64,000 nucleotides of DNA from Pirellulales bacterium (GTDB lineage Bacteria; Planctomycetota; Planctomycetia; Pirellulales; JALHPA01), in NCBI GenBank assembly GCA_049840575.1, contig JASGKV010000024.1, forward strand, positions 136,874 through 200,873, read 5' to 3'. The position numbers and the translations under genes were made by a program. Below, one piece after another: positions 13,652 through 58,785 of the stretch. The notes under the pieces are model-generated. The model had not been told where the DNA came from. It saw nothing but the letters and a program-made list of their open reading frames with translations, and did no database searches. How positions within the stretch are numbered: the stretch's first letter is position 1; each line of letters begins with the position of its first letter.

Positions 13652-13657
13652 CCGAGA

Positions 13658-15615: not shown

Positions 15616-15782
15616 GGAGATCGCTCCCGGAAAAACTCGCTGATAAGTTTCAGAAGTGGGCGGTCGACAAGACATGTCGAAGCTAAACACTTGGTTTCAC
15701 AAGGAACCCCGACGAAGCGCAGAAAGTCGAGATGCAGTGCGATAACGCGAACCAGCGATTCGGAGAAGTTCGGCTCGGCGCA

Positions 15783-15968: not shown

Positions 15969-17492
<1,524 letters not shown>

Positions 17493-23603: not shown

Positions 23604-23971
23604 GGTCACTTCCTGCTTCGATGAGACGCGCGCGCAATACCCGATCGGCCACCCGTTTGGCGGGCGGTGATCAAGCGATGTACGAATCCGTCGCCGCCAG
23701 AAAAGCGGACAACGCAAGGGGCGCAAGATGCGTGGGAAAACGCTCGTTGCGAGATGCGATGTGTGTCACCCGACGACGCGATTGTAACCACGCTAGCAGC
23801 ATCGTCAAAGCACCAATTGCCGACGTCCCGAAGCGATCGAAACGAGTTCTTTCTTATCGGTCCGAATTGCCCGAGGAATGATGCGAATCCCACCTCGACC
23901 GGAGCGATGAATTTTTTCGCCGGCGGTTTTCGCGGCGTGGAAAAGGTGTTTGGATTCGGTCAGGATCGCGT

Positions 23972-38115: not shown

Positions 38116-40552
38116 TTATTCGGCTCGCAACGGGTTGGCGATCTGCCACAGTTGCGGTCCGGTCATACGATGCGCGGCGTCATGGGGACATGCATACACG
38201 CAACTCGGTTTGTCCAAGGGGTCTTTGGCGTTGATTTTCGTGCACAAATCGCACGTAAACGCCTTCAGCTTCTGTTCGCCCTCGTCGTCCCGAATCGGGT
38301 GCAGGTTGATGTTTCCATAAGGACAGTTTTCGGCACATTTGCCGCAACCAATGCACCAATCCTTGATGACGACCTCTTTTCCGACCTCGCGATGGATCGA
38401 TCCGACCGGACAACCCACCATACAGAAAGGGTCGTAACACGAACGACAGGCCGAGGCGACCAAAAATTTGTCGAACCGCAGCCCTTCGCGCGTCAGACGC
38501 GACACGCGGTCGGGGTGCGCGCTCGGCACACGCCTTGGCGCATTCGTCGCAACGCGTACATTTTTCCAAATCGAGAACCAACAGACTCTGCGCGTTGTAC
38601 AACCCTTGATCGAGGAACGGTCCGAACCCCGGCGAGAGGTAGCCGCCGGCCTGAGCTTCGTTGGAACGCAGCCGTTCGGCCGCCGTCTTCAGCAGTTCGG
38701 TCTTGAGATCCGGAAAGTCTTCCAAGATCTAAAAAGTCGTCGCGGCGAATGCGCACCAAATCGACGTGATCCAACGCCGAACACGTGGCGGTCCGCTTCC
38801 CCTCGGGCGTCAAACCTTTGAGTTCGTCGAAGCCGGAGAGCAGACCGATTTCGCCGAAATAGCCACCGGGACCGATATAGTTGAGCACCATATCGCCGTT
38901 GGCGACCTTCACCGAAGCCGGTGCGAACCATATAGAACGCGTCGGCCGGGTCGCCTTTGCGAAAGATGGTTTTTTTGGGGTGCGAACGCAGCAAGTCGAC
39001 CTTATCGCGCAGCCCGTCGATAAACTCCTCGGACCGGGCGGGGTTTTTCGCGAACAACGACTGGAACAAGGGGACTTGCCGCAAGTGGTTGTCCAACACA
39101 CGCGCGCGATACAGAATCTCGCAGCGTTTCGCGCGATCGACGCGTCCGCTGCATCATGTAGACGACGTTGCGCAGGATTTCGAGCACCACGACGTCGCCC
39201 CGCCGCGGATCGTCGCCGACCGCGGGTAGTTGTTCATGCAGGCCATCTCGCCGAAGATGCGGTCGAGACGGTCCATCGTGGTGACCGGATCGCCGTACCG
39301 CAGCGTAACGGGAGCGTCGGAGAGGTTGATCACCTGGCGCGACGACGCAGTGTCGGATTTACCACCGGGGCTTAAGAAGCCGAAGATTTTCGAAAAGATT
39401 CCTCCGCCGGCATCATCTGCCGAGCCGGAAGTTTTGATGCGGACTTCGACCTTGCCGTATTCGATGATGAACGCGGTCGAGCCGTACTCGCCCTGGCGAC
39501 AGATGATTTCGCCGTCGCGATAATGGCGGCGTACCACCGCGCCGAAGTTCCAATCCAGAAACCGTTCGGACATATCGCCGAACAAATCGGGATGGCAGGC
39601 GCACAGTTCGGCGGCCGGCACCGGGCCGGGGCGAATTTTGCGTTTGACCGTCGGGCCTTTGGCGGGTGACGTTTTCAAGCCGCTCATTGGGGTTTCTCCG
39701 CCGCGGTTTCGGCCAACACGCCCGGGTCGTCGGCGGCCAGTTCGATCTCGATTTCGCGTTCCGGCGTGCGATCCATCACGATGTTGATGACCTGCCGATT
39801 GGTCAACGCGCCCGTCGGACACGAGATCATACATTCGCCGCAAAGCGACGCACGACGATTCACCCATCGGTTGGTCGTCGTCGAAGGCGATCCGCGTTTG
39901 ATACCCTTTGCCCATCCGGCCGATGACGAAATTGCTGCGGATTTCGGTACAGGCCCGCACGCAACGGTCGCACAAGATGCACGCGTTGTGATCGACCTGA
40001 ATAATCGGCGACGAATCGTCTTCGCCCCGATCGGGCGACGTGCGCGGGTAGTGATTTTCGCGGGCTTGGATCATTCGCCCGATGCGATCCAGTTCGTTTT
40101 CGGGCATCGTACGCCCATCGGCCAGCGAGGGACGTTGGTAATCGCTTTGCAACAATTCCACGACCGTGCGCACGATCCGCGCGATGCGTTCGCTGCTCTT
40201 CAACGTCGAGATTTCCATCCCGCCGGCGACCGGTAGGTAACAGGCCGGCACGAGCGACGTACGTTTGTTGCCGTTCCTGTCCGTAGCCGTCAGTTCCACC
40301 AAACAGGCGCGACAAACGCCGACCGGTTTCATGTGCTGTTGATGACACAGAATCGGCACGGGAACTTCCTCTTCTTTCAAGACTTCCACATACAGCTTCT
40401 GCGCGGCGTCGTAGATCGTCGTTCGTTGCGAGAACAAATCCTTATCATCGGGACTATATTTCGGCTTCAAAGGACTGATCGAGACTTCGTGCCCGTCGAT
40501 TTTCAACTTGACGGGACCTTTGGACTGCAATTCGGCCCCGGTGCGCGCCCAT
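38116..40552 (-). CDS. Fe-S fusion protein: NuoG-like N-terminal [2Fe-2S]+[4Fe-4S] module, two cyclic-nucleotide-binding domains, and a C-terminal 2x[4Fe-4S] ferredoxin; several apparent frameshifts
   Basis: ORF 39154..40530: KLKIDGHEVSI...TIYDAAQKL...PILCHQQHMKPVGVCRACLVEL (2Fe-2S). QVDHNACILCDRCVRACTEI...IGRMGKGY...ESSC (NuoG-type His/Cys 4Fe-4S). First CNB domain ...RRHYRDGEIICRQGEYGSTAFIIEYGKVEV...IFGEMA...PRSATIR. ORF 38493..39101: second CNB domain ...NYIGPGGYFGEIGLL... ORFs 38180..38725 and 38116..38529: CTRCDECAKAC and CxxCxxCxxxCP repeats (CMVGCPVGSIH, CIGCGKCAENCPYG, CDLCTK..CVYACP). The start is ATG ~40552 or TTG 40530. Confidence 0.6.
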
Positions 40553-40596: not shown

Positions 40597-42546
40597 TCAG
40601 CCGGCATCGGTCGCTCCCGGAACAATGATGTGACGACGAATATCGTCCGGAAAATACTTCAGCACGGTCAGAATCGAATTCGGTACGACTTGGCCTAGGC
40701 CGCAGATCGAGGCGTCGATCATGACCAAGCCGAGTTCCTTCACCAGATCGTCGTCCAGCGCGACCCCGCGGTCGAACGTTTGACGCAACATGTAGGCCAT
40801 CTTCTCGGACCCGACGCGACACGGCACGCATTTGCCGCACGATTCGTTGCGGTAAAATTCGACCGAGTTCAACGCCTGATCCAACATATCGGCCCGGTCG
40901 TCGTACGCGACGAACGCGGCGCCGAGCATCAGGCCGCGACCGAGCTTGAACGTCTCCAGATCCAACGGCATGTCGAGGATATCGAGCACGTCGTCGGCCG
41001 ATTTCATCACGCCTCGTTTGACCAGTTCGTCGGCGTAGCGCGGCGAGATTTTTTTGGGTTCGATTTTGTCCGGCAAGAACCCGCTGGAAGGCCCGCTGGT
41101 GGCGATCGCCTTGAGCGTACGCCCCGGCCGCATGCCTCCGGCGCATTCCATCACCAATTCGCGCACCGATTGACCGAACGGCACTTCATAGACTCCCGGT
41201 TTGACGACGTCGCCGCTGATCGAGACGAACCGCATGCCTTTCGCGCCGCGGACGCCTTGTTCGGCGTACCACTTGCCGCCGTTGACGTAGATCGAGGGTG
41301 TCCACGACAAAGTCTCGACGTTGTTCAACAGCGTCGGTTGGCCGCGATAGCCTTCTTCGGAAATGCTGGGCGGCTTGTTGCGCGGTTCGGCGCGGCGATC
41401 TTCCATCGCGGCCAAGAGCGCGTTCTGCTCGCCGCAGATGTATCCGCCCGGGCTGACGTAAACCGGTTTCAAGTCGAACGACAGGCCGCTCCCTTGGATG
41501 TTGTCGCCGCAGATCCCGCCGCGCCCAGGCGTCGCGCACGGCGGCGTCGACCGCTTCGATCTGGTCGTGGTATTCGTGACGAATATAGACGTAGCCTTCG
41601 GCCGCGCCGGTCGTCAAGCCGCCGAGGATCACGCCTTCGAGCACCAAATGCGGAAAACGGAGCAGCAGTTCGCGGTCTTTGAACGTCCCCGGTTCGCTTT
41701 CGTCGCCGTTACAGACGACGTATTTCTTGGCCACTGGAACCGGCAAATTCTCGCGGCGGCACTTGGCCAAGATTTCAGGATCGATCTCGCTCAGTTTGGC
41801 TTGGCTGACTGATTTCCATTTCTCGCCGGCCGGAAAGCCGGCCCCGCCCATTCCGCGGAGATCGGCGATTTTCAGCTCGGCGAGAATCCGCGCGGCGGGG
41901 TTTTGGCGTAGCGCCTTGATCGCGGCCGATGGTTCTTCGTCGGGCTTGAGGTTACGCTCCAGCTTGTAGAGTTCGCCCAGAAGTTCCGGCGGAGTCTTGC
42001 CGCGATACTCGGTATGTTCGGCGAGGAACGTTTTCCACTCGTTCAAGAATTTCTTGACCGCGCCGTACTCGGCCTTCCCGCCGTACGGGTCGACCTTCCA
42101 CGGCAGCGGCGTGCGATCCGGCGCGGGGGGATGCACGTGTTTCCCCGCGTGGGCTTGCGTCATCAGATCGACGTACTGTTCGGCCGCCATGCCGGCGAAC
42201 GTGTGGTCGTCGATCAACACGGCGACCGGTTCGTCGCAGCGGCCGAGACACGAGACGCCGTGGACGGCGATCTGCTCGGTGGGGGATTTCGTCGCGGCGT
42301 TCAACTCGGCCGCGCGACGTTCGAGCGCGCGTTTGCAGGCGTCCGATCCGCGTAAGTGGCAGGCCATGTCGCGGCAGACCATCACTTCGGTCTTCGGCGG
42401 CGGCGCAGCTTGAAGTGCGGGAAAAAGCTGGCCACTTCATGCAAACGATACAGCGGCTCGCCGATGCTTTCGGCGGACGCTTCGAGCGCTTCGTGCGGCA
42501 ACCAGCCCTGCTCCGCCTGGATGCGACGTAATTCTTGGACGATCAT
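40597..42546 (-). CDS. NuoE-NuoF fusion: thioredoxin-like [2Fe-2S] ferredoxin domain + NADH-binding FMN 51-kDa subunit with [4Fe-4S]; 2 apparent frameshifts
   Basis: ATG 42546 overlaps the upstream gene stop (ATGA). NuoE-like: MIVQELRRIQAEQGWLPHEALEASAESIGEPLYRLHEVASFF...VCRDMACHLRG...GVSCLGRCDEPV. NuoF-like: LRGMGGAGFPAGEKWKSV...KYVVCNGDESEPGTFKDRELL...PHLVLEGV, then ...ESCGKCVPCRVGSEKM (4Fe-4S) in ORF 40597..41472. Confidence 0.7.
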
Positions 42547-44160
42547 GGGTTCCGATCCGGGGGATTCGCTTCGGTTCGGGCGGCACGCACGATCGCCTGC
42601 GACTGTTCGTAATAGCGTTCCAACGGCGTCGATGCCGCGCTCCGCGCGACGGCGGGGCGTTTCTCCGGCCAAGGATGTTGGGATTGATGATAGCCGTGAC
42701 ACTCCACGCAATCCGAACGGGCGTGCGTGATCGACTTGTCCGCGGAATTCACGCTGTTCGGCGCGTGACAGCGGACGCAGTTGTCGCGGTCGGGGATCAT
42801 CACTTTTTCGTTGTTGGTCGCGGCGTTCGCACCTTCGCCGAAGGCTCCTTCATGACACGTGCGACAGTCCTTCGAATCCTTGGTCGTCACGTGGGGAGTG
42901 TGATCGAACTTCGCGTGCGCGTACCACGTTCGCGGAACTTTGGTCGGCGCGATCGCGGGGAACAGCGTCGCGCCTTTATCTTCGGCGAATTCTCCGGAAA
43001 CCGTGTGGCATTCGACGCATTGGGTTCGTGTGAGATACTCGGCCGATTTCCGAATTTCCTGCTCCGCTTCCTGACGCTTCGTCTCCGACAGGATACGCGG
43101 GGCTTCGTTCCCCGGGATACGGCGCTCCGGATCCGTGGGTTGCTTATCCAACTCGGGCGAGTCCTGCATCGCCTGCGTGTAGACGGTGTTGCGAACGAAA
43201 CGCGACAGTTCGTCGGGCGTCGACTTATGCACGACCATCGCGCCAGGCGTCCCCGACAAGCCCGCTTGATACGGCAACTGGTGGCAGGCGACGCAGTGGC
43301 GTTCGAACAGCACCGGAAGATAGTTCTTTCCGACGGTCGCGGATCCGGTTTCACCCGAAGCCAACCCGGCGTCGCCGAACTTGGGATTGTCGCGGGTCCG
43401 TTCGTGACAGGACGAGCAGTCGAGTTGCACCCAGCCTTCGTTCTGCACGGATTTGCCGGTGCCGTAGAGTTCGCGGTATTGGGCCGCTTTGCCGACGTTC
43501 GCGCCTAACTCGGCCATGCGGACCAAATCGGTCGGTTGACGCGGCACTTCTTTACGAGCTTCGCCTTTGACGTCGTCCCGCAACGTCTGCGGCAGCCCGG
43601 CGGTCATGTGCAAAGCGTGGTTGAATTTCAACTTGCCCGGATCGACTTTGATCGAGCGAAAGTCGGGGTGTCCGGCGGCGAACGATTCGATCTTCGCGGC
43701 GAACGGCTTCGCCGGATCGCGCGACGGGCCGTCCATATGATCGGCCAGATTCGCATGACAAACGGTACAGTGTTGATCGGCGACGAATTTGATATCGGCC
43801 GAACGACCGAGGTGATCGCGATGGCAAACGGCGCAGTTGGCTTCCAGCGCGCCGAGTTGCTTGTCATACATTTCGTTCTGCGGCGAGTGCGGGCCGGTTT
43901 TCTTGTGGCATTCCAGGCACTTCGAGTCCATCGTCGAGACCCACTCGGGCCATTTCTGTCCGCCGGCGGAACCGGAGATCGGCGTGAACGAAACGTGGCA
44001 AGCCTGACACTTGGCGTCCAACTGTTGATGCTTGGCGATCAACGGTCCGTGCGAGATGACGTATTCGCCGTTATCGGCCAAAGCCGGATAGAGCGCAAAC
44101 GCGCCGGCCAAGAAGATCGCGGCCAACCCGGCGCGGGTCTTCCAAGCGTCCCAGCGGTTG
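42543..44160 (-). CDS. decaheme c-type cytochrome with N-terminal signal-anchor
   Basis: Ten CxxCH motifs: CQACH, CLECH, CAVCH, CTVCH, CSSCH, CVACH, CVECH, CRTCH, CVRCH, CVECH. Likely GTG start 44160 giving MPRDYLRRYNRWDAWKTRAGLAAIFLAGAFALYPALA. The tracked ORF extends to 44315 with an implausible N-terminus. Confidence 0.7.
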
Positions 44161-44331: not shown

Positions 44332-45289
44332 TCACAGGTACTTCAAGGCGTACAGCACGTGCACGAACATCAAAACAACCAGCGCGGCCGACAAAGGCAA
44401 ATGCACCAACAACCAAGAATGCAACCAAGCGTGGAGTTTCGTTTGGAGTTCGAACTCGCGACGCTGACGACAAAGATCACCGAGCGCCTCGACCACTTCG
44501 TCTCCGCCCGGTCCTAATCTGCGACGCAGACCTTCGAAAATTCGCTCGGCGCGCCCCGAGGCGGCGAACGACGATTCTCCGCGTTTCTCGCCGCGCAGAA
44601 AGGGACCGATCTCGGTCGCGTACAGTTCATCCAGAGCGCTCGCGGCCCCGGGTTCCGCGCCGGCTAGGTTCAAAACCGCGACGTTTCGTTCCAGCGTCTT
44701 CTCCTGCCACGGTCGATAACCGCTAACGGCGAAATTCTCTTCATACGCCGGTTCGACCTTCACCGTTTTGAGGGCCGATCGCCCAAGCGACGCCGCGACG
44801 ATCGCTTTGGCCTCTTGATCGAGTTGCGAGGAGACGCGTTCGACTTGGGAGTGAATCGTTTCCGACGGAACTTGCTCGTACATCGTCCGCGGGATGTATT
44901 GTTGCAGGACCAATCCCCAGACGCCGCTGAGAATGACCACGGCGAACAACACCATCAGTATCAGCGCCAGCCAACCGTCGAAACGAAAGCCGGAATGCAG
45001 GACGATTAACGGAACGGTCAACAGACCGAGCCAGATATGTGCGCATCCACGTTTGCGCGCGACCGATGCGCCAGGCGCGCACTTTCTTCCGCGGCCAAAT
45101 CGCGAACTCGAAGAGGATGATCAATCCGCCGACGGTGCCGTAAACCAAGCCTGGCGCGGAAGAACCACCGACCCATTTCCCTTCTGCTTGACTGGAGATC
45201 GCGTACCACGCGCCGACCGCGATCGTGGCGACGACTAAGAACGCGACCCAGCCGCGGTGCTGTTCGAAATGTGGACCGGTGACCAACAC
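44332..45289 (-). CDS. polytopic membrane protein with conserved His in TM helices (candidate b-type-cytochrome-like membrane anchor); 1 apparent frameshift (~45020)
   Basis: GTG 45289: MLVTGPHFEQHRGWVAFLVVATIAVGAWY..., then AHIWLGLLTVPLIVLHSGFRFDGWLALILMVLFAVVIL..., then C-terminal LHAWLHSWLLVHLPLSAALVVLMFVHVLY. The function is inferred only from TM/His pattern and genomic context. Confidence 0.45.
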
Positions 45290-45626
45290 GAAATCGCCCC
45301 GATTTCATGACTTGAGGCCGAAAAACCGCGTAAAACCCGCGAATCAGACGAAATGTTAAAATCCGCGCTACCCGCTGTCAAACGAATTCAAGCCGAAACC
45401 GCGAGAATTCACGCCCTGTCGAGCGATTTTCATAGACCGCGCAAGATCTATCGATTATTCATGTTCTATGATTGCCCAGCCTTTACGATGAAGGCGAAAC
45501 GCGCGCTCGTCGGCCACTCGACGTCGCGACGATCGGGATCACAGGACGTTCGCATTCGAGACGTCGACCACCACGCGATCGCGCACGACAGCGCGATCCG
45601 AGACTCGTTCCTGGGCGCAGAAACTT

Positions 45627-48410
45627 ATGACGACTTCCAACGGACAATCGACCGCGGAAAGCAAACTTCCTCAAACGGCCGAGCATCTGCGACTCCGCAC
45701 GATCGATTCCGACGCCTTCGGTTGGCGACGTTGGGGACCGTATATCAGCGATCGCTCGTGGGGGACCGTACGCGAAGATTACAGTCACAACGGCGACGCC
45801 TGGAGTTTCTTGCCTCACGACATGGTGCGCAGCAAGGCCTATCGCTGGGGCGAAGACGCCATCGCCGGAGTCAGCGATCGATATCAACTATTGAACATCG
45901 CTCCGGCATTTTGGAACGAACGCGATCCGATTCTCAAGGAACGTCTGTTCGGACTGACGCCGCAAGAAGGCAACCACGGCGAAGACGTGAAGGAATATTA
46001 CTTTCACGTCGACAACACGCCGACGCACTCGTACATGAAGTTGCTCTATAAATACGGGCAACGCGAATATCCATACGCGGACCTCGTGAACGAGAATCGT
46101 CGCCGCGACGGCCAAGGCTTCGAATACGAATTGCTGGATACCGGATATTTCGAGGAGAACCGCTACTTCGATATTGAAATCGAGTACGCCAAGGTCGACG
46201 AAGACGATTTGCTGCTGAAAATCACCGCCATCAATCGCGGCCCGGACACGGCGCCGTTGCATATCCTGCCGCATCTGTGGTTTCGCAACACCTGGAGTTG
46301 GAGCGGTAAAGCCCAACCGCAACCGCGCATCGAGCGCGGCGCCGACGGCCGCGATTTCGTCACGCTGCATGCCGACGATACCCCCAGCGGCGGCCAGCGC
46401 GGACTACCGTTCTCGTATGCCTTGGGACGACGCACTCTGTATGCGGCCACCCCTGAAGCGATCCTCTTCACCGACAACGAAACGAACGCGGCTCGGGTGT
46501 ATGGTCCGGGCAATTCGTCGAAAAGCCCTTACGTCAAAGACGCCTTTCATCGCCATTTGGTGGACGGCGAGGAATGCCTGCGCCCCGAACCGTTCGGTAC
46601 GAAGGCCGCCCTGCACTATCGCTTTCCGGCCGTCGCGCCGGGCGAAGCCGTGGTCGTGCGAGTCCGGTTGTCGGACGACGACGCGCTCGCCGATCCGCTA
46701 GGCGAATTCGACGGAATTTTGGAAACGCGTCGACGCGAAGCCGACGACTTCTACGCCGCCGTTCATCCGCCCGAAGCGTCGGCGGACGAACGTCTGGTGC
46801 AGCGTCAAGCATTCGCCGGCGCGTTGTGGACCAAGCAGATCTATTTGATGGACGTCGAAAAGTGGCTGCACGGCGACGATCCCAAGTCGCCGCCGCCCGC
46901 CGAACGTTTAAAAGGCCGCAACAAACATTGGTTGCACTTGAATTCGATGCGCGTCATATCGATGCCCGACAAGTGGGAATACCCCTGGTTCGCGGCTTGG
47001 GATTTGGCGTTCCACACGGTCACGTTGGCGCAGGTCGACCCGAAGTTCGCTCAGGATCAGCTCTGGATGTTGCTGTTCGAGCAGTTCCAACACCCCAACG
47101 GTCAATTGCCCGCGTATGAGTGGGACTTCGGGGATCTCAACCCGCCGGTTCACGCTTGGGCGGTCTGGCGTGTTTACAACATGTCGTATCACCGCACAGG
47201 AAAGAAGGATTACGAGTTCCTGGAAAGCTGCTTCCATAAATTGTTGATCAACTTCGCGTGGTGGATCAACAAGGTCGATCAAGAAGGAAACAACGTCTTC
47301 GAAGGGGGCTTCCTCGGGCTCGACAACATCACGGTGATCGACCGTAGCGAACGTTGCACCGACGGCTCGAAGCTCGAACAATCCGATGCGACCGGCTGGA
47401 TGGGGATGTTTTGTTTGAACCTTATGCGGATCGCGCTCGAGTTAGCGTTGACCAATCGCGTCTACGAAAAGATGGCGATCAAGTTCTTCCAGCACTACAC
47501 GTACGTCGCTTCGGCCATGAAGCACATGGGCAACCGCGACTATCAATTGTGGGACGAGAAAGACGGCTTCTTCTACGACGTGCTACGGCATCCCGACGGA
47601 CGCTTTCAGAAATTCCGCGTCCGTTCGCTGGTCGGGCTGATCCCGATGTTCGCGGTCGAACGTCTGGAATCGAAGTGGATGGAACCGTTCAAAGAGTTCT
47701 CGACGAACTTCCATTGGTTCCTCGAGAACCGGATGAAAACCGCCAAGAACGTGGTACACGAAGTCGATAACGGCACCGGCACGACGTATGTGCTGACGAT
47801 CGTCAATCAAGAACAACTCGGCCGCATCGTCGAGCGGATGTGGGATCCGAACGAATTTCTTTCGCCCTACGGCTTGCGCAGCCTCTCGAAGTTTCACGAA
47901 GCCAACCCGTTCGAGTTCGAAGGCCGTCGCGTGGATTACGAGCCGGCTGAAGCGATCTCGAAGCTCAAAGGCGGGAACTCCAACTGGCGCGGACCGATTT
48001 GGTTTCCGACCAGCTTTTTGATGATCGAATCGCTGCGCAAACTCGGCAAAGCCTTTGGTCCGAACCTGAAAATCCACGTCTCGGACGGACGCAATCTGGG
48101 CTTCGGCGAGTTGGCTTCCGATCTTGCCAACCGCATGATCAAAATTTTCAGTCGCGACGAGCGCGGTCTCCGCCCGGTTTACGGCGGCACGGAAATTTTT
48201 CAACATGATCCGCACTGGCGCGACTTAGTGTTGTTCTTCGAATACTTTCATGGCGACGAAGGGGCCGGCTTGGGGGCATCGCACCAAACCGGCTGGACCG
48301 CGTTGATCGCCACGCTGATCGAAGAATGGCGACTCGGCGACGACACTGCCGCGCAACCCAAGCTGGCAGCCCTCGCGCAAACGGCCAAACCACGAACGCA
48401 ATTGGCTTAG
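45627..48410 (+). CDS. glycoside hydrolase family 63-like (processing alpha-glucosidase / mannosylglycerate-hydrolase-like)
   Basis: Uninterrupted 927-aa ORF with ATG 45627. (alpha/alpha)6-barrel-type motifs ...[68 protein letters not shown]... typical of GH63/MGH-like enzymes (family call from memory). Confidence 0.7.
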
Positions 48411-48665
48411 GCATAGTATCGCCTGTGCTCGGTGTGGCGAGCGAATTGCGTGTTCCCGCAAGTCGGGCTAAGATGCGCATGTTCGTCATTTCGCTCTTGA
48501 GCCGCGAGATCGTCGGGGCAGCGCCGATTCGACTTATCTAGAATCCGACGCTCGGTTCGATCGTTGTGCGCCGCCGTTGTGCCGGGGACCGGCGCACGTT
48601 TCCGAGACGCCGCCCCCGTTCATGGACGAACGCGGACCAGCGCGGACCGCACCAGGATCGTCGCT

Positions 48666-51600
48666 ATGACGGAAAACAGCAGTCTTTGGTCGCGATTGAC
48701 CGGGCTGACCGGTCGTATCACCGCCGCGCTCTTTCTGCTGACCGCGATCTTTCCGTTGGTCATCTATATCTTGTCCAGCGAAATCGCGTCGGACACGATC
48801 CTCAAGCATGAGATGGACGATTTAGCCGACGAATCGAGCGATAGCTGCAACGACTTGATCTTGAAACTCGAACAGCTCCGGTCGGACGTATTGCTGCTGG
48901 CCTCGGATATTCAAAATCCGTCAGCCGGTGTTTCTAGGCTTCAAGGGCGATAAAACGCCGACTGCCACGAATCCCGAAGTCGTTGATCCGAAGAATCCCG
49001 GAGAGCCGGATGGCTCGCAAGACGGTACCGAGAAGGCTCTGGAGGAAGTCAAGCGAAATCTCAAAGGCGTCACCAAGGAAGAAGTTCAAGAACGATTGAA
49101 ACGGGCGTTGGTGGAATCCTCTTCGGATGCCTTGGACCCCTACTTCAATTACGAATCCGCCGCCGCAGGCCCCACCTATCTCCCGGGCGTCGAAATCGAA
49201 TCCGTTTACATTCGCGCCGCCGTCTTCAACCGCGACGAGCAGGGGCTGCACGAACTGGGAATGGTTCACAGCGATACGATCTATCGTCAAGGCGAAAGCG
49301 AAGAAACGAAACGCTCCGCGGATGCGGCCGCGATCGACCAATTGAAGACGCTTCTGCCGGAAGCCGAAGCGCGACAAGCGCGTGATCGCACGGACGTCTA
49401 TCTCTCGGACATCTTGGTCAATCCGGAAACCGGGCGTTATACGATTTGGGCGATTCTGGTCATTCCCAAGCTCGATGAAAAACAAAACGTCTTGAATACG
49501 ACGCCGCGCGTCGGCTTTGTCGCGATTCAACTGAATTGGTCGCGATTGATACGCGAGATGGATCGTTCGAATCGCTTGTTAATGTTTCTGGCAGGCAAGC
49601 AGGATGCCGTTTGGAAGTTTTTCGAGCATCCCGAGCAAGACCATCTGACCACCAAGAAGTCGGAGACGTTGCGGCAGATCAATGGCATCGAAAGCGTCAT
49701 CAACTACGAACACGACGACCTCGGCAACTATTCGCCGCTGGATCTCGAAAAGATGCTGGAAGAACGCTACGAAGACCTTAGCGCCCGCAGCAACACGCTA
49801 GGCAACGCGTTTAAAAGCTCACGATTATCCTTAGTCGACGTCCGCCGATATTTCATCGTGGGCTTTATTAATCAGGAGTCGATCGAACAGTATTACCAAG
49901 ACGATCCCAAGCGGCTCGCCGCTGCCGAAAGCCATGCCGCCTATGTCGAGGAACGCCTGAACGCGGAACGACCGGACGGAACTGGCAAGATCGATCAGCG
50001 TCCCGCGAATTATCTCAAGAATCTCTATTACATGCGGATGCTCTGGAGAGAGATGTTCGCGTTACGCGAGAACGAGGAAACGCTGCGTTTCCTGCCTCCG
50101 TTGGATCCTTCGCGACTCGGCCAAATCAACGACCAACGGTATATGGTCAACGGGCGCATGACGCCCGGACAACCCAAACCGGCTTGGATCCCCGCGGTCG
50201 AAGAAGTCTTCCAGAAATTCCACCTCGCGCCGTCGAAGAAAAGTCGCGTAGCGGCGATGAATTATCTGCGGTCTTGGAAAGACTATTCTCAAGCCGAGAT
50301 GGAAACGTACGGCTTGTATGTCGAAAAGATCCCGCTCGACAAAAACGCCGCGGTGACTTCGGCCGAGCCCGCAAAACAAAAAATCCGCTATTTATTGTAC
50401 GGCGCAGCCGCGTCGTATCAGGAAATCGAAGCCGACATCCAGCAAAACCTCTGGGTGTTAAAACTCTTACTGATCGTCGCATTGATCAGTTGCGTGTTGT
50501 TCGCGATCGGCGTATCGAAAACCATCACGAAACCCCTGCGCGGATTGTTGACCGCTATTCAACACGTCGGAACGTTGCGCGGAATACGCGACGACGCCGA
50601 GTTGCCGGTCGACCGATCGGACGAAATCGGTCGCTTAGCCCGCGCGTTCTACTCGATGAACGACGAGCTGCGCAGCAAAGAAGATCGTTTGCGCGACGAA
50701 AAGGCCTACGCGATGGCGATCGTCAATGCGGTCGGAGAAGGGATCGTCACGTTCGACGAAGACGGCAAAATAATCGGCGTGAACGTGGCCGCTCGAAAAA
50801 AGCTGTTCCAGTACAAATCCGATACGCAATTGATCGGCCGCAACTTTTCGGAACTCTTCGCCAACGACGATTGGAACAAAGAAGAAGATATGGAGAACGC
50901 GCTGTCGCAGCGTCGACTCGCAAGTGGCGTCGTTCACGATCATGCAAAAATTGTACGAACCGACCGAATCGGTCGGCATGCGAGCGGACGGCACGACGTT
51001 CCCGATGGAGTACATCCTCAGCGAGTTTCCGCACGGCGGGAATCGTTTCTACACGGCGATCGTCCGCGACATCAGCGAACGCAAGAAATACGAAGAAGAA
51101 CGTCGCCAACGGCGGCGCGAACTGGAACGCGAAGTCGAGCGCAAGACGCAAACAATCCGCGAAAGTAAACGCAAAATCGAAGAAACGTATCAAAAACTGG
51201 AAAGCGAACAACGCCTGAAAGATACATTTCTTCTCGCTTTGACTCACGAAACGAATAACCTGCTGGTCCCCATCATGGGCCATGCCACGGCCTTAGCGCG
51301 AAAGATGGCCGACGATCCCATGGTGGTCGATCGCTCGAACAAGATTCGGCGATCCAGCGAACGCATCCAGCAACTCAGCAACGAGTGCAAGAATTATCAA
51401 AAATTGGTGATGGGCAAAGTCGATTTGACGCCCGTCGAATTCGATCTTAGCGAACTCATACGCGGGATTGCCGAACAACTCGAAGAACGCGCGACGAAGA
51501 ACGAAAGCCGTATCGTTCTCGAAGGGGTCGACGCTTTGGGCAAGATCGTCTCCGACCAAGAACGAATAACGCAAATATTAACCAACTTGGTCGGTAACGC

Positions 51601-52762
51601 TTGCAAGTTCACCAAGCAAGGGACCATCACCATCGCTGCCCAACGTTTGGATCAGAACGCCGGCAATTTCGTACGCATCGACGTGCGAGACACCGGAGTC
51701 GGTATGTCGCCCGAGCAGGCGGACCGATTATTCAAACCGTTCCCGATGATCTCGACCAAGGAACAAAATCCGGACGGGACCGGCTTGGGACTGGCTTTGT
51801 GTAAAGATCTCTGCCGCATCCTGGGCGGAGATATTTCCGCTTCCAGCGAACAAGGCGTCGGATCGACGTTCAGCGTGGTGCTGCCGATCGAACTCCGTTT
51901 GGAGAAAAATCCGGAATCGGCCGCGGAAGAGCACCACGTTTCGACCTTGACCAACGTTTTACGTCCGCACGCGAACGGAGATAAGAAATCGCGTCGGGTG
52001 TTGGTCATCGACGACGATCCGAACGTCTGCGATTTGATGCGCGAGTTTTTAGAGAACCACGGCATGGTCATCAGCACCGCGCACGACGGCCAAACCGGAC
52101 TCGAAATGGCACGAACCCAAAAGCCCGACGTCATCACTCTCGATGCGATGATGCCGAACATGGATGGCTGGACCGTGTTGACGCTACTCAAATCGGATCC
52201 ACAAACCCAACGCATCCCGGTCGTGATGGTCACCGTAGCCGACGATCGAAAGCGGGGCGTCTCGCTGGGCGTCTCCGACTATTTCACAAAGCCGATCGAT
52301 TGGCCGCGTTTGACGCGAATGCTGCAGGATTACACCGGCGGCGAGGCGGCCCCGCGCGTGCTGGTCATCGACGATCAGCCAGGCACGCGCGAGATGTGTC
52401 GCGAGACGCTCGCCGGCAACGGTTGGATCGTGGTCGAAGCCTCGGACGGCGTCAGCGGCTTGGCACAGGTCGAGGCGGCGAACCCGTCGGTGATTTTGCT
52501 GGATCTGTTGATGCCGAATATGGATGGATTCGAGTTTCTCGAAGAGTTGCGCGCTCGCCCCGACGGCGCGAAAATTCCGGTGGTCGTGATGACGGCCAAA
52601 GACTTGACGGACGAAGATCGTTTACGATTGAACGCGCGGGTCGCCGGCGTCATTATGAAGGGAAGATTGTCGACCGACGAACTCTTACAGGAAATGTTGC
52701 AACGCGTGAAATCCATTCTCGAGACGCGCTCGGATCGCACGAAAGAGGTGTCGGTTGGCTAA
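48666..52762 (+). CDS. hybrid sensor histidine kinase (large extracytoplasmic sensor, TM, HAMP, PAS, HisKA, HATPase_c, two receiver domains); 2 apparent frameshifts (~48930, ~50930)
   Basis: ATG 48666 (TM LFLLTAIFPLVIYIL). ORF 48928..51168 has the periplasmic domain, second TM (LWVLKLLLIVALISCVLFAIGVS), HAMP (AFYSMNDELRSK) and PAS. ORF 50924..52762 has H-box (LALTHETNNLLVPIMGHA), N/G boxes (LTNLVGNACKFT, DTGVGMS, GTGLGLALCKDL), REC1 (RVLVIDDDPNVCDL...ITLDAMMPNMDG...) and REC2 (RVLVIDDQPGTRE...ILLDLLMPNMDG...). Confidence 0.7.
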
Positions 52763-53123
52763 TATCCTCATCGTCGAAGACGACCCGAACGCCGCCGAAT
52801 TCGTTAGAGAATTCCTCCAAGACGAGGGCTTCGTCTGCGAATCGACGGCGGTCCACGAACGCGTCTTCGAACTCGTTGGTCAAAAATGGCCCGACCTGAT
52901 TCTGATGGACAGCATTCTGGTCGGTTACCCGCTGCAAGGCTGGGAAATCGCTCAACGGATTAAGGCCGATCCTGCCACTACCGGAATCCCGATCATCGGT
53001 CTTTCCGGTAAGGACGGCGCGGGGGGCGATCCGCTGCGGATGGCCTCGGATACCTTTTTGGCCAAACCGTACGATCCGTTCGTCTTGTTGGAAACGATTC
53101 AAAAATTTCTCGGCGCGTCGTGA
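52755..53123 (+). CDS. single-domain response regulator (CheY-like receiver)
   Basis: TTG 52755 with AGAGG 6-7 nt upstream, overlapping the kinase stop. MANILIVEDDPNAAEFVREFLQDEGF...LILMDSILVGYPLQGWEIAQRIKADPATTGIPIIGLSG... Confidence 0.6.
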   Translation: MANILIVEDDPNAAEFVREFLQDEGFVCESTAVHERVFELVGQKWPDLILMDSILVGYPLQGWEIAQRIKADPATTGIPIIGLSGKDGAGGDPLRMASDTFLAKPYDPFVLLETIQKFLGAS

Positions 53124-53149
53124 CGCCCGGTTTCGGAAGGGATTCTTCG

Positions 53150-54794
53150 ATGTCGCAAACTCCGCTCGCACCCGACGCCGGCTCGACGGCCGGGCCTATC
53201 CCACGCCGGAGCGCGTCACATGCCGGTCTAACGCGCGGCTACGTAATTCGTATCCGCGAGGATTTAAGCTCGCCGCTCCGCGCGATCCGCGACTTGGCGT
53301 CGGAACTCGCCGCCGGATCGGCTGAACGCGAGGCGACGTTTTTCAAACGTTTAAACGGCGTCGTCAAGGCCAGCGACGCTTCGCTCGAAACGATCCTGCG
53401 CTTGTGCGACGCCGAGAAACTCGTCGGCGCGGAGATCGATCTTGCGGCGGAGTTTCACACGATTCGTCATGACTTGGCGAATGCCTCGACGATGATGGTC
53501 GGTAATTCAGCGTTGTTGCTACGGGACGAACAGGCGGAAAAATTCGGAACGATGCTTTCCGAACTCAAGCAAATCAAGGATCTCATCGAACTTTATCTAC
53601 GACGAGTCAAAGCGGTACGCCCGGAAGCGATCGCCGATCCTTTGGCCTGCGAAATTCATCCTCAATTCACCGTGACGCAAGATACGACGTCGAGCGAAGA
53701 TCTCGCCAAGGTCTTGCGACCGTCGACATCCCGCCCGGCCGCATTTTGGTCGTCGACGACAATCAAGACACGCTGGATGCGATCACAGCGATCCTGCAAG
53801 ACGTCAAACACGTCGTCACCGCGTTGGACAACGGCACGGCGGCATTAAAATTTATCGAAAAACCCGAGAACCGCGACGCGATCGACGTGGTGCTGCTGGA
53901 CATTCGGTTGGGGAACGAGAACGGCTGCGAAATACTCGGTCGTATCAAATCCATGGCCTGGATGGAGCATGTTCCGGTCGTGATGATTTCAGGGCTGGAA
54001 GATTGGGACGTCATCGCCAAGTGCATCGGCGCCGGGGCGGACGATTATCTCACCAAACCGCCGCGACCGACGATGTTGTTGTCGCGGATGAAGAACTGCT
54101 TATTACGCGTCCGCAACTATCGCGATAACGATCGCGCCAAACGAGTTTTGTCTCAACGTTCGAAAGAACGCGACGGTATCATTCGAAGCCTGTTCCCCAA
54201 GCGGATCGTGCCCGACGTCATCGGGCTGAACGATATCACGCCGAAGCGTTACAACGACCTCGCCGTGATGTTTTGCGACATCGTCGGCTTTACGTCGTAC
54301 TGCGACACGCATCAAGACGATCCGCACAAGGTCGTCAGCAAGCTGCGCGAACTCTTTGAAAAATTCGAGGACGCCGCCGACGCTCATAACGTGGATAAAA
54401 TCAAAACCATCGGCGACTGTTTCATGGGCGCGTGCTGGCCGGAAGACGTCAACAACAACGTCGAAAGCTGCATCCGCGCCGCGCAGGAAATGATGAAGGT
54501 CGCGCAGGGGCTCGATTGGAAACTGCGCATCGGCATTCACCAAGGAACGGTCGTCGCCGGAAAAGCCGGTAAGAAGCAGTACTGCTTCGATCTGTGGGGC
54601 GATACGGTGAATTTGGCCGCGCATCCAAGGCGAAGCGGCCGAGGATTCGATCGCGCTCAGCCATCAGGCGTACGAAGCGGTCCGGGATTTATGCCAAGCC
54701 AAGGACCTGGGTTACGCCGAACTGCATGGCAAAAAAGAGCCGGTCAAGCTCTATCAGTTTCTTCGATTTTGGGATCAAGATTGAGGCGATTCCC
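53150..54794 (+). CDS. signalling protein: N-terminal helical H-box-like region + receiver domain + class III adenylate/guanylate cyclase catalytic domain; 2 apparent frameshifts (~53750, ~54620)
   Basis: ATG 53150. ORF 53120..53848: ...EFHTIRHDLANASTMMVGNSALLL... ORF 53746..54801: REC (ILVVDDNQDTLDAI...VVLLDIRLGNENGCEIL...PVVMISGLED...DDYLTKP), cyclase (LAVMFCDIVGFTSYCD...KIKTIGDCFMGACW...RIGIHQGTVVAGKAGKKQYCFDLWGDTVNLAA). Own translation of the third frame gives the natural C-terminus ...AYEAVRDLCQAKDLGYAELHGKKEPVKLYQFLRFWDQD* (stop 54792-54794). Confidence 0.65.
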
Positions 54795-54812
54795 GTTTTA
54801 ATCGTCTCTAGT

Positions 54813-55873
54813 TCAAATCTCGATGCTCATCCCTTCTCGGACCAAGCAGGTTTCCGGAGGATGCTTCGCGTGAGTCCCTATCGCGAGTCGAGCGACGCTT
54901 GCTTTGGCTAAGACCTCTAAGTCGTACAACGCCTCGTCCGAGCGACGCGGATCGTGGTGCCCGATGTGCAATCGTTTGACGCCAGCCGCGCAGGCGGTCG
55001 CCGCGACGCGTTCGACCGCGCTGTGCCCCCATGTGACGCGCGACAGCGGCGTATCGCCGTTCACACCGACCTTGCCTAAGTATTCGTCTTCCGAATATTG
55101 ACCGTCGGTGTACAGCAGGTTGGCATCGCGCGCGAAGTCGGCCAACGCCGAATCCGGCGCCGCGAGATGCTCGTGATCAGTCGCCAAGACGACGACCTTA
55201 CCTCCCCGCTCGAAGCGGTAACCGACCGCACCGCCGGGATGGTTCAGGGCGAACGTAGAAACACGCGTCCCTCCCAATTTGAATTCGTCGCCGGCCGCGA
55301 TGGTGCGATACTCGCGAATGCCCGCTAACCGATCCAACGTGGTCGGAAATAACGTTCCACGCACCGGCGAGTCTTTCGCCATCACCGCCTCGATGGCGCG
55401 CATCACGGATTCGGCCGCGCTCAACGTGATCTCGAAACGCGGATCGTAGAACGGCGGAATCAGCGGCAGCGCGAAAAGGTGGTCGATGTGGCAGTGTGAA
55501 AACAACAAGTGAACCTTGCGTTTCGACTCGTCGACTTTGACGCGTCGCATCAGGTCGTAACCCAACTCGACCAATCCGCCGCCTGCATCCAGGACGATGG
55601 TTTCATCGGCCGTGTCGATTTCGATGCACGTCGTCGAACCGCCGTACTCGGTCGTCATACGCGAGGGGAGCGAGCGCAGGAGGAACTCGCACAAGCTTCG
55701 ATGGATGCGCCCGTCTTCGGCGCCAGTTCCAGCCCGCCGGACAAGTTTAAAAACGCCAAAGCCTCGGCCGTCCGTGCTAGCCCTGCGCCGGGCTTGAGCG
55801 GTTTATCGTAGGATCCGGTCGTCCCCCAATAGCGAACCAGGAACTCCCGGGCGGACGTGGTGACGTTGGGCAT
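54813..55873 (-). CDS. MBL-fold metallo-hydrolase; apparent frameshift(s) near the 5' end
   Basis: ATG 55873: MPNVTTSAREFLVRYWGTTGSY (typical MBL N-terminus), continuing in ORF 54813..55694 (...IVLDAGGG..., HCHIDH metal-binding motif, ...ATDHEH..., HIGHHDP). Confidence 0.6.
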
Positions 55874-55986
55874 AACTGCGCGCGTGCGCGACGGCGACGC
55901 TTCGGGGAATCGGAGTTTTGATCTTCCCTAGGATAAGTCGCCGTGCGGCGAATCTCCAGCATTCCGGGTAAATCTTCCTCCGGGAG

Positions 55987-56387
55987 CTATTCCTTATGAA
56001 GAATCTTCGGACCATCCGTTTTGTATGTACCCGGCTCTTGGCGGGCATCTTGATGCCACCAACCCAAAGCGACGCGACGGTGGTAATGCTTGCCGAAGTA
56101 ATCCCAGCCCCAAGTTCCGTCGGCAGGCCAATAAGGCCCGTCGCCTTTCCCTTCCGGAGCGCGCCGCCGACATAATATCCGTCGTACGGTCCGCAGCGCG
56201 GCTGCACGGCGTGCGGCCGAACTTCTTGCGGAAAGCCCGCCCGTTCGTGCCGATCGGTCGGCACGGCGAACCAATTCGCGGGATGAATATACGGTTTAAC
56301 CGCCTGTTTTTCTCCAGCGGCGGCAACATCACAAATCGCAACCACGCAAAACACGGCGTATAGCGCCCAGTTCGAACGGCCTTCCAT
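55987..56387 (-). CDS. hypothetical small secreted protein; 1 apparent frameshift
   Basis: ATG 56387: MEGRSNWALYAVFCVVAICDVAAAG signal (ORF 55803..56387). The natural-looking C-terminus is in ORF 55987..56274 frame (...GDGPYWPADGTWGWDYFGKHYHRRVALGWWHQ...). Confidence 0.4.
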
Positions 56388-56447
56388 GGCACACCCCGAT
56401 GCAAGTTGTAACGACGATCCATCTCGGAGCGCCGAAAATCGTTTGTC

Positions 56448-58504
56448 TTACAACAACGGATTCCGATTGAACTTCGAGTACGGCAACCGCACGTTGCGGA
56501 TGAAGTACATATCTGCACGCAGCGCCGGAGGCGCGGCATAAGCCAACGAAGCGGCGGTCGTCACCACGTCGTCCTGATCCACGCCGTCGCCGCTGACACC
56601 GAGCCCACCTAGCAGAGTGTTGCCGCTATACAAGCCGGAACTGCCTGGGAAGAAGACGACGCCGTTTTGATTCGGGCTGCCCGCGATCCGCGGATCACGG
56701 AAATTTCGCCCAACATTGAAGGAATCGAACATCAATTCCGGTGTTGTGTTCGTTGAGTATGCGGAAAACGGCATGGCCGTCGTCAAGTTCTCGGCATTAG
56801 CCGAATTGATACCTGCGGCTAAGAGACTAGAGAACGCTCCCGGGGGAATGCCGACCGCAGTTCCGGTCGGGTATCTGGAAGATGCCAGATACCTAAACGT
56901 TCGCGAGGTGTATGCAGTCAAATTCGGCGTGGTCGTTGGATCGATCGGATCGTTCGGTTTGTCGGCGGCGACCAGCAGCGAAGAATTGTAATACGCCACG
57001 TTTCGCGCCTTGGCCACCGCGACGTCGATCGAGAAGACCGTGGCGTCCGGCATCCGGAACAACCCGACGATATCGCCGTTCAGATCCGCGACGGCGAAGA
57101 CCATCGCTGTAAACTGACCAATCGGCAAACGAATCGCTGGCGCGTGGCCTTGGCTTGGATCACACCCGCATTAATGATTTGTTCGACTTGCGCGGCCGTG
57201 ATCCCGACGCCGTCGGTCGGTTTGACGATCCACTTTTGCGGAACCGTCTGCCCGTTCCAATATCGGAGCATCACATCGTCACCTGTTCCCAAGATTCGAT
57301 CGGCGCCGACGCGATCGACGACTTGGTCCAACACAGGATCGTTAACGGTCACGTTTTCCGTTCCAGCCGCCGCGCCGACTTGCATAAGTCTTGGAATACC
57401 TTGCGTCACCGCGTTACCCGGACCGATAATCTCCACCGTGATCCCAACTAAATCGATTCGATTGCTGTTGAGGTCCAAGTTGGCAGGCTTAAACGACATG
57501 TTAGTAGGGAGTGCGGGAACGTTCGCGATGGCACCGACCCCCCCCGCTGCCGCAAAAGCCATGTACTCGGCCTGCAAGACCAACGGCGCGTTTAAACGGT
57601 TGCTTTCCAGTGTCGTTTGCGCAACTCCCGGGTTCAGCGACGCCTTGCTGAAGTTCTGCTCGAAGATCGCCGTACCGGTCGCGCCGGGGAAGAAGACACC
57701 GATCCCTCCCACCAATTCCGATCCTATATAGAGGGGAATACCACCGGGCAGTGTCGCGATGCCGCGCGATTGTCCGTTCTGGTAAACACCCGAATCGTAG
57801 CCGTATGAATCGGGGGCATCACGTAAATAATCCATTACATCGATAGGTATCATGGGATTCGGGCTGGCGATACGGCCATCGTTTTTGATGTTAAAGCGAA
57901 ACTGCATCGGCATATCGTCGGCCGTGCCGCGAATCCCGTCGGCGCCGGGATGCACGATTCCGTCGCGATTCGTATGCTCGATCCCCAGCAGATCCACCAG
58001 CCCCGTATTGTTCACACCAGGCGGAAACGTGCCGGCGATCCCAACCGGAGCCACGGTTCCCGGACCGCGCAAAGGCGAATTCGGGTCGGTGATATAGGTC
58101 AGCGATTGAACTTCGCGCTGTGTGATCGTGGATTGACTGATGAAACGAACGCTGCGCGATGTCAAGGGAGCCTGATCGTTGGCGAAAAACGCGGCCGTAC
58201 GAGCTTTGGCGACCGCGCCGTCGATAGCGAAGGTCAGCGTTTCCGGGGTTGTAAAGGTCGACAGGACTTGTGCTTCGGTCCGTACGCCCAAGATTTCGCC
58301 GCGACGATCAACTACGGCGATAATCGCATCCTGCCGCGCCGAAGCGGCGGCCGCACGTGCCAGCAAAAGTTGAACGTCAGGTACGGTCAAAACCGCCATC
58401 AAACGTCGGTCTTCTAATGCTTCGAACGCATAAGCTCGATTGTGTTGTCGCTGCGAGTTGTTGGACGCGGTCATTTTCGGCCCCCACCAGGGTTTTCGAC
58501 TCAT
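56448..58504 (-). CDS. large secreted protein with two GlcG/heme-degrading-like (DUF336-type) domains; 1 apparent frameshift (~57100)
   Basis: ATG 58504 (MSRKPWWGPKM...). An N-terminal ...FEALEDRRLMA motif, then ...LLLARAAAASARQDAIIAVVDRRGEILGV...AIDGAVAKARTAAFF... (first GlcG-like domain). ORF 56448..57128: ...AMVFAVADLNGDIVGLFRMPDATVFSIDVAVAKARNVAYY... (second). Family resemblance from memory. Confidence 0.45.
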
Positions 58505-58785
58505 AGAAATCGCGCGTTTCAACCAGATTCCCGGCGAATCCGCACCAACCGATCCTAGTTGTCCGTAACAAACGTAACAACATCTTCGTCGTTCAAATCG
58601 GGAAATCTGGGAGTTTTCCTTAGGGGCGGTAAAGTCATTAAAAACCGTTCAACACTTGCCATGCGGGATACCGATACGTCAATTACGAGCAGTGCGCGCG
58701 GCAATCCGCATGCTATCGCTACGACCGGACGTCGCGCCGTTGGTACGGACGTTTCTCGTAGGCTCGGGATTCAGGGCAAGTCTCG

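Follow-up and report, generated by a model that had tools for sequence, protein, structure and literature searches.

The window, a 64,000-nucleotide stretch of a 345,458-bp contig from a Pirellulales metagenome-assembled genome, carries a plus-strand signalling cluster that diverges from a minus-strand redox operon. In this cluster, a glycoside hydrolase of the GH63 type is followed by a hybrid sensor histidine kinase, a CheY-like receiver and a class III adenylate cyclase, and the operon encodes cytochromes, a NuoE/NuoF fusion and an iron-sulfur (FeS) protein with two cyclic-nucleotide-binding (CNB) domains (Table 1). This order of genes and domains had been proposed in a sequence-only reading of the window and was recovered with Pfam on the plus strand between 45627 and 54784; the single reading frames assumed for the kinase and the cyclase were not. 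Three open reading frames (ORFs) of the window are identical to NCBI proteins, namely MGC4006693.1 (glucosidase), MGC4006698.1 (cyclase response regulator, 351 aa) and MGC4006687.1 (2Fe-2S protein). The stretch at 48666-54784 is a conserved three-gene signalling unit, composed of a hybrid kinase, a one-domain receiver and a protein that joins HisKA-like, receiver and cyclase domains. The cluster is a conserved module leading from a phosphorelay to cyclic AMP (cAMP), a new arrangement of well-known parts. A local cAMP circuit, in which this module would feed the CNB domains of the neighbouring operon, is plausible but unproven and is drawn from gene context.

Table 1. Features of the window at and around the signalling cluster.
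Feature	Position	Strand	Basis or remark
Cytochrome c554-like multihaem protein, next operon gene	36218-37921	-	domain search and relatives
HoxU/NuoG-like FeS protein with two cNMP-binding domains and C-terminal 2x[4Fe-4S]	38116-40542	-	at least 5 frame changes
NuoE/NuoF fusion (2Fe-2S thioredoxin-like, FMN/NADH site, 4Fe-4S)	40597-42558	-	two frame changes
Multihaem cytochrome c, 590 aa	42543-44315	-	domain search
Cytochrome b-like/DUF4405 membrane protein, ~327 aa, first operon gene	44332-45289	-	frame change ~45030
Divergent intergenic spacer, 337 bp	45290-45626		between redox operon and GH63; ORF starts
Near-palindrome ATAGA N10 TCTAT	45432-45451		chance-level feature
GH63-type glycoside hydrolase, 927 aa, intact	45627-48410	+	MGC4006693.1 'glucosidase'
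Hybrid sensor histidine kinase, ~1364 aa stitched	48666-52762	+	three frames, Pfam domains
CheY-like single-domain receiver, 122 aa, TTG start	52755-53123	+	Pfam Response_reg, 59 bits
HisKA-like (without ATPase)/receiver/class III adenylate cyclase, ~544 aa stitched	53150-54784	+	frame-corrected
MBL-fold (RNase Z/phosphodiesterase-type) hydrolase, convergent with the cyclase	54813-55694	-	Pfam Lactamase_B_2
Large HbpS-like (PF03928) protein, frameshifted	55803-58522	-	recurrent operon neighbour

The kinase and cyclase genes are each spread over three reading frames. Three-frame translation and a frame plot of the GC content at third codon positions (GC3) placed the jumps in the plus-strand cluster at ~48905-48930, 50895-50925, 53715-53725 and 54619-54622, the second of them inside the PAS domain of the kinase. 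The minus-strand operon is broken likewise, with NuoE distributed over two ORFs and the FMN domain of Nuo51 over two others. Indeed, the NuoEF, FeS-CNB, cytochrome b-like and HbpS-like genes and most of the long genes examined are split, at a density of ~1 indel per kb of coding sequence examined, and secA and dnaA (5452-7105 and 22463-23726, both on the minus strand) also lie over overlapping ORFs in different frames. No organism can do without SecA and DnaA. Given that these essential genes are equally split, and that similarity to orthologues continues after each shift, the breaks were judged to be assembly indel errors and not gene decay. The opposite explanation, a decaying cluster with four real disruptions and with the kinase and the cyclase as pseudogenes, would fit the fragments that are all the given sequence yields, and which the NCBI annotation treats as separate proteins; one of the disruptions also removes a catalytic arginine. 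Nevertheless, nearly every long gene examined is disrupted alike, GC3 periodicity and protein similarity persist undiminished past each shift, and the GH63 gene is free of breaks, so that we rejected pseudogenisation as highly improbable.

The same type of frame damage is present in the locus L081 (ENA contig_46990), and other assemblies have single intact ORFs. L081 (~7600-7660) and the window (~50905) both show a +1 frame change within the same PAS domain of the kinase. A programmed frameshift was considered and rejected, since the two sites lie ~15 codons apart and other assemblies carry single ORFs; we judged the shared shift to be a coincidence, although a systematic sequencing-error context is also conceivable. 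The practical lesson of this window is that an error-rich assembly can make intact signalling genes look like fragments.

With regard to the kinase, the restored protein comprises a first transmembrane segment (TM1), an extracytoplasmic domain of ~555 aa, a second segment (TM2), and the domains HAMP (~50512-50658), PAS (~50716-51080), HisKA (~51218-51400), HATPase_c (~51554-51892), REC1 (~51998-52324) and REC2 (~52361-52708). The extracytoplasmic region is bracketed by the two hydrophobic segments, and Pfam recovered HAMP, PAS, a weak HisKA, HATPase_c with 94 bits and two Response_reg domains at 48928-52762. An H-box histidine, an HATPase_c domain, a transmembrane sensor and C-terminal receivers are thus combined, as in hybrid histidine kinases. 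Orthologues of 1303, 1258 and 1221 aa are encoded by single ORFs, and the H-box histidine and the aspartates of both REC1 and REC2 are conserved in four orthologues. The overlap between the kinase and CheY-like genes described in the sequence-only reading is real; it measures 8 nt (52755-52762), and the same overlapping arrangement is found in relatives. The translated CheY-like protein carries the receiver residues EDD, D52, S and K. Its gene overlaps that of the cyclase by 4 nt if the latter starts at GTG 53120, or is separated from it by 26 nt if the start is ATG 53150.

The cyclase protein is longer and more elaborate than the REC-cyclase that had been described. Its gene starts ~600 nt before the annotated ORF, and an N-terminal HisKA-like domain with a histidine in an RHDL motif (DHp-like, 53150-53719), previously missed, precedes the receiver (53722-54087) and the cyclase domain (~54241-54781). 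The stop codon lies at 54782-54784 and not at 54794. The NCBI annotation covers only the 351-aa middle piece (MGC4006698.1), and Pfam finds Response_reg and Guanylate_cyc (PF00211, 111 bits) in the ORF at 53746-54801. A search with the stitched protein returned ~3000 relatives, from which the best 120 were used for a domain survey and 46 for an alignment of residues. Most of these 120 are 500-560 aa long and contain HisKA, Response_reg and Guanylate_cyc; HisKA (PF00512) is annotated in the majority of homologues, and its match in the window is a weak one (E 5.8e-4). Neither the window protein nor any of the 119 homologues listed has an HATPase_c domain, so the polypeptide lacks the ATPase of a CyaC-type cyclase. 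HisKA-like helices with a conserved histidine and no ATPase are the features expected of a DHp-type histidine phosphotransferase, a role like that of Spo0B or ChpT that is predicted here.

Within the 46-member alignment, the H-box motif RHDLRxPLNxIxGY keeps its histidine, H107, in at least 90% of the homologues. The receiver has DD202/203, an invariant phospho-acceptor D250, S280 and K302. The metal-binding aspartates D376 (FCDIVGFT) and D422 (KTIGD), the ATP-specifying pair K418/D480, and Arg459, Asn487 and Arg491, which serve the transition state, are invariant. As written, the window reads VNLAAHPRR, and N487 and R491 (NxxxR) appear only with a frame shift at 54619-54622, a break that directly precedes the catalytic arginine. 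If this break is taken as an assembly error and the frame is restored, the cyclase domain has the complete set of class III catalytic residues, whose absence on careful alignment the sequence-only reading had named as a refuting outcome.

The N-terminal HisKA-like domain of the cyclase protein has a conserved histidine and no ATPase. From this we infer a His-Asp-His-Asp relay that follows the Spo0F/Spo0B/Spo0A scheme and whose last two components form one polypeptide with the output enzyme. The kinase histidine would pass its phosphate to a receiver aspartate, either on the kinase itself or on the CheY-like protein. From there the phosphate would move to the histidine of the cyclase protein and then to the receiver aspartate of the same protein, and phosphorylation of that receiver would switch the dimeric cyclase and set the level of cAMP. 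A shorter, two-step route can also be envisaged, in which phosphate passes from the kinase straight to the cyclase receiver, the HisKA-like segment provides only dimerisation helices, and the kinase receivers serve, like the CheY-like protein, as phosphate sinks. Two points speak for such a route: dimerisation is a requirement of class III cyclases, and the first of two HisKA-like segments has already lost its histidine in this clade. However, the second segment keeps its histidine and its H-box motif at ~30% overall identity, conservation that a pure dimerisation helix would not require, and a hybrid kinase with two receivers is the usual start of a multistep relay. We therefore regard the two-step route as rather unlikely. 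The His-Asp-His-Asp relay makes the module a clean test case for an enzyme output, with the second histidine domain and the final receiver fused to the cyclase.

In relatives, the order kinase-receiver-cyclase is constant, often with overlapping stop and start codons. The full order GH63-kinase-receiver-cyclase was found in L081, in two JGI contigs and in L082, and one JGI contig shows it with intact genes (GH63, 915 aa; histidine kinase, 1303 aa; receiver, 125 aa; HisKA/REC/cyclase protein, 515 aa). In L081, the nearest relative that could be compared at the DNA level (cyclase 49% and GH63 71% identical), homologues of the cytochrome b-like and multihaem proteins lie divergently upstream, as in the window. 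The JGI contigs, which probably belong to the L081 lineage, carry upstream genes that match the operon in size and orientation, a match judged by sizes alone. The synteny predicted by the sequence-only reading thus holds for L081 and, by gene size, for the JGI contigs. The P0242 contig has GH63 and then the kinase at the contig end, and L083 has the kinase (with a dCache_1 sensor), receiver and cyclase without GH63. Upstream of the cluster in L082 and in the P0242 contig lie other genes, so the linkage to the operon is kept in two deeply diverged lineages and is absent from at least two others. Several contigs also have, close to the module or to the operon, Ser/Thr kinase-TPR proteins of ~930-1010 aa and a second cyclase (L082 at 14804-15646 on the minus strand and 11773-14796 on the plus strand, the P0123 JGI contig and the P0242 contig).

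The redox operon occurs widely across Planctomycetota and also in soil contigs that resemble a Terriglobia locus. Intact relatives show a six-gene unit that encodes a DUF4405 cytochrome b-like protein (~325 aa), a multihaem cytochrome (~525-590 aa), NuoE/NuoF (~650 aa), the FeS protein, a c554-like cytochrome and a further multihaem cytochrome. Two gene orders occur among 80 metagenome loci, one common to the window and the Pirellulales locus L084, the other to the Terriglobia locus L022 and many soil contigs. The FeS protein has 790-920 aa in relatives. Its N-terminal half is HoxU/NuoG-like (2Fe-2S/4Fe-4S), and two cNMP_binding domains lie between this half and a 2x[4Fe-4S] region at the C-terminus; its family yielded 2646 matches at E <= 1e-20 among 8000 candidates scored. 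One FeS-CNB orthologue (L084 6226-8985, P0127) has an extra N-terminal RRM_1 RNA-binding domain (PF00076; NCBIfam Rbp_regulator, 58.7 bits), which is a strange partner for an iron-sulfur subunit that transfers electrons.

The two CNB domains, CNB1 at ~39190-39585 and CNB2 at ~38724-39120, have phosphate-binding cassettes that follow the family motifs FGE...PR[SA]AT and FGE...RTAT, which in the window read FGEMACMNNYPRSAT and FGEIGLL..KRTAT. Across 32 homologues, the CNB1 cassette keeps G in 32/32, E in 31/32, R in 32/32, S in 29/32 (A in the other 3) and A in 32/32, and the CNB2 cassette keeps G in 32/32, E in 32/32, R in 28/32, T in 28/32 and A in 32/32. That both cassettes are canonical and almost invariant argues that these domains bind a cyclic nucleotide. 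As the sequence-only reading had stated, cNMP_binding domains occur in the 64-kb window only within the redox operon; they lie in this minus-strand FeS gene. With family-derived hidden Markov models at E values up to 10, no other CNB domain, including the CRP-type combination of CNB and HTH, was found there outside the FeS gene; this negative covers the window, and a divergent CRP may exist elsewhere in the genome. The window contains no second cyclase.

Cyclases of other kinds stand beside the operon in other lineages. All three contexts obtained for the closest FeS-CNB homologues contain a cyclase, each of a different architecture: a TPR-cyclase lies ~5.7 kb upstream of the operon in a JGI contig, a 608-aa cyclase 69 bp past the operon in L084, and an FHA-GAF-cyclase ~3.8 kb upstream in L085. 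A cyclase was also found in 11 of the 80 metagenome operon loci, which corresponds to 22 per Mb of flank, compared with 3.7 per Mb in GH63-centred loci, a biased control. Nine of the 11 are CHASE2-cyclases located 12-371 bp from the operon end. Among ~22 adequately covered lineages, ~8 have a cyclase within ~10 kb of the operon, and in 2-3 it is the very next gene. Cyclases are thus found beside the operon more often than expected by chance for a family of such size, the comparison being informal. The presence of non-orthologous cyclases beside the operon lends added support to a coupling with the CNB domains.

Several findings weigh against such a coupling. All nine CHASE2 loci fall into one cluster at 70% identity, and when one locus per cluster was retained (25 representatives, 197 kb of flank) a cyclase was present in 1/25. 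A Pfam census of the operon flanks in these 25 representatives gave no dominant family, which weakens a claim of general cyclase enrichment, and most metagenome loci with the gene order of the window show no cyclase within the flank covered. The GH63-centred loci are not neutral as a control, because GH63 itself associates with cyclases. The module occurs without the redox operon in L082, the P0242 contig and L083, where the predicted synteny fails, and the window as given does not encode the intact proteins. The association between cyclase and operon is clearly facultative.

Our reading nevertheless takes the module to sit inside the operon neighbourhood and not merely beside it, because GH63 and the HbpS-like protein, which flank the window cluster on both sides, are themselves recurrent neighbours of the operon. 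The unit belongs to a recurrent neighbourhood made up of the cytochrome b/multihaem c/NuoEF/FeS-CNB-CNB/c554-like operon, the HbpS-like protein, GH63 and a metallo-beta-lactamase (MBL)-fold enzyme of the phosphodiesterase type. The cAMP made by the cyclase would most likely be read locally by the pair of canonical CNB domains that the FeS subunit carries. Since the window holds no CRP-type reader, a local circuit would act on the FeS protein itself, and cAMP would influence the transfer of electrons from NAD(P)H to cytochromes at the protein level and not through a CRP-type regulator. To this combined reading, namely a relay unit within the operon neighbourhood, CNB domains as local cAMP readers and frame breaks as assembly errors, we assign a probability of roughly 0.55. 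The sequence-only reading had named three outcomes that would refute it, and none of them, loss of synteny, loss of catalytic residues or CNB domains unable to bind a nucleotide, appears outright, as far as the sequences indicate. Its proposal of a receiver-controlled cyclase coupled to the neighbouring CNB operon stands with regard to the conserved module, the residues, the synteny in L081 and the other cyclases, and is weakened by the facultative link.

It is also possible, though doubtful, that the module is a general source of cAMP, or is tied to GH63 and its substrate, and that its position next to the CNB operon is incidental, the CNB domains reading cell-wide cAMP or another ligand. GH63 stands immediately 5' of the kinase in four lineages and the redox operon alongside in only two of them, which agrees with this explanation, as do the facultative nature of the cyclase adjacency and the module found alone in L083. 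Incidental placement accounts poorly for the recurrence of at least five cyclase architectures by the operon, three times as the very next gene, and for the recurrence of GH63 and the HbpS-like protein by the operon in several lineages. Going further than the local circuit preferred here, one may tentatively suppose that the NuoEF/FeS/multihaem complex is directly gated by cAMP through its tandem CNB domains, that lineage-specific adjacent cyclases form dedicated local circuits, driven by a phosphorelay here and of the CHASE2, FHA-GAF or TPR type elsewhere, and that the MBL protein is perhaps an off-switch; we see this broader scheme as a possibility on the unlikely side.

The GH63 protein matches Pfam PF22422 (MGH1-like_GH, 89 bits) and PF03200 (Glyco_hydro_63, 38 bits), and has the (alpha/alpha)6 catalytic domain of GH63; its identity across Planctomycetota is 65-71%. 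A GH63 gene adjoins the CNB redox operon in the window and in L081, L016, L022, L087, L099, L147, L149, L150, L152 and L159; L016 is labelled Planctomycetota and L022 Terriglobia, and several others are unlabelled contigs. In L167, a cyclase that is 48.6% identical to the operon-side cyclase of L084 lies directly 3' of GH63. GH63, cyclase and operon are linked pairwise across different lineages. A genome scan centred on GH63 found the kinase-cyclase cluster in 0/80 loci, and NuoEF/FeS-CNB genes only in L016 and L022.

On the other side of the cluster, the MBL protein has NF041851, a cyclic nucleotide-degrading phosphodiesterase, as its best NCBIfam match, with 37.9 bits against a cut-off of 400. 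It gave no match to the Pfam families PDEase_II or Apyc1 even at E values up to 1, and its nearest solved structures are RNase Z (2cbn) and YhfI (6kns). In L094, a homologue (676-1518, plus strand; E 5e-34) begins within the operon-side cyclase gene, 4 nt before its end, so that the cyclase stop overlaps the MBL start, and this pair adjoins an HbpS-like gene and the operon. We rejected the MBL protein as a proven cAMP phosphodiesterase, the case being one weak NCBIfam match and one co-occurrence; it is a weakly supported candidate cyclic-nucleotide phosphodiesterase, and its role as a cAMP off-switch is speculation. In the P0247 contig, another GH63 context, a PDEase_II/Apyc1-like MBL protein adjoins a c554-like cytochrome. 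HbpS-like neighbours with tandem PF03928 domains were found in ~18 operon loci (for example L093-L095, L130, L135, L138, L149, L020-L022 and L081), and the L081 protein has a weak Planctomycete extracellular signal motif, below the cut-off. The HbpS of Streptomyces works outside the cell as an accessory sensor for the kinase SenS, and by analogy the HbpS-like protein might feed the window kinase.

The 337-bp divergent spacer is real, as described in the sequence-only reading. It runs from the GTG at 45289 of the minus-strand cytochrome b-like/DUF4405 gene, a start backed by the L081 alignment, to the ATG of GH63 at 45627. A sigma-70-like site, TTGACA-17-TAACAT, points towards the minus-strand operon (45381->45353), in a promoter scan that was not above chance. 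The near-palindrome ATAGAc-N8-gATCTAT, placed at 45433-45452, was one base off, and only ATAGA and TCTAT (5 bp) pair perfectly. As an operator it was rejected: its arms have 5 bp, 18 equal or better inverted repeats occur within the same spacer, and it is not conserved in L081, whose spacer gave no alignment with that of the window. Elsewhere in the window, a complete 16S rRNA gene (15977-17491, minus strand; Rfam 1483 bits) accounts for a low-GC stretch at 14-18 kb. No 23S, 5S or tRNA gene was found in the 64 kb, so the rRNA genes appear to be unlinked.

In bacteria, cAMP is known chiefly as a signal to which transcription factors of the CRP type respond. The FeS-CNB proteins, a very large uncharacterised family, combine a HoxU/NuoG-like iron-sulfur module with two canonical CNB domains, and their genes share an operon with those for NuoEF and multihaem cytochromes. 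If the adjacent cyclases feed these domains, a second messenger would act directly on the flow of electrons between NAD(P)H and periplasmic cytochromes, in Planctomycetota and probably in Acidobacteriota, given the Terriglobia locus and many unlabelled soil contigs. A complex gated directly by cAMP in this way would, as far as we know, be the first example of a respiratory-type complex in bacteria under allosteric control by a cyclic nucleotide.

Literature searches on the operon and on the HisKA-REC-cyclase architecture turned up only one analogue, the ptd operon, and a general census paper. The ptd operon of marine Alphaproteobacteria (UBA11136) likewise places a CNB-plus-FeS protein among multihaem cytochromes, a membrane protein and an NAD(P)-binding oxidoreductase, and the paper describing it reports no cyclase linkage. 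In contrast to the window operon, it has a porin and an FAD/NAD(P) oxidoreductase in place of NuoEF, and the window protein adds a HoxU/NuoG-like N-terminal half and two CNB domains.

With regard to the control of cAMP, the Chp system of Pseudomonas aeruginosa (ChpA, PilG/PilH) controls CyaB and cAMP-Vfr. As would be the case here, a histidine-kinase pathway with CheY-like proteins determines how much cAMP a class III cyclase makes, and the reader is a CNB protein; the Chp cyclase has no receiver, however, and the reader there is a transcription factor, whereas no CRP-type regulator was found in the window. CyaC unites a receiver, a GAF domain, a complete kinase with ATPase, a second receiver and a cyclase in one polypeptide. 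In the window, the kinase with its ATPase is a membrane protein of its own, only the His-bearing helices are left in the cyclase protein, and there is an extra CheY-like gene. The passage of PMC1183210 that cites Kasahara and Ohmori 1999 describes CyaC of Spirulina/Anabaena as an adenylate cyclase activated by autophosphorylation and phosphotransfer. The likeness lies in a class III cyclase with a receiver directly ahead of its catalytic domain, whose activity would, in the window too, depend on His-Asp phosphotransfer to that receiver. A related logic is that of Spo0F-Spo0B-Spo0A and CckA-ChpT-CtrA, in which the second histidine is on a DHp-type domain unable to autophosphorylate. The window module shares the DHp-type second histidine and the single-domain receiver and is predicted to share the His-Asp-His-Asp order of phosphotransfer. 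It differs in that the second histidine domain and the final receiver are fused, and in that the output is an enzyme and not a DNA-binding domain.

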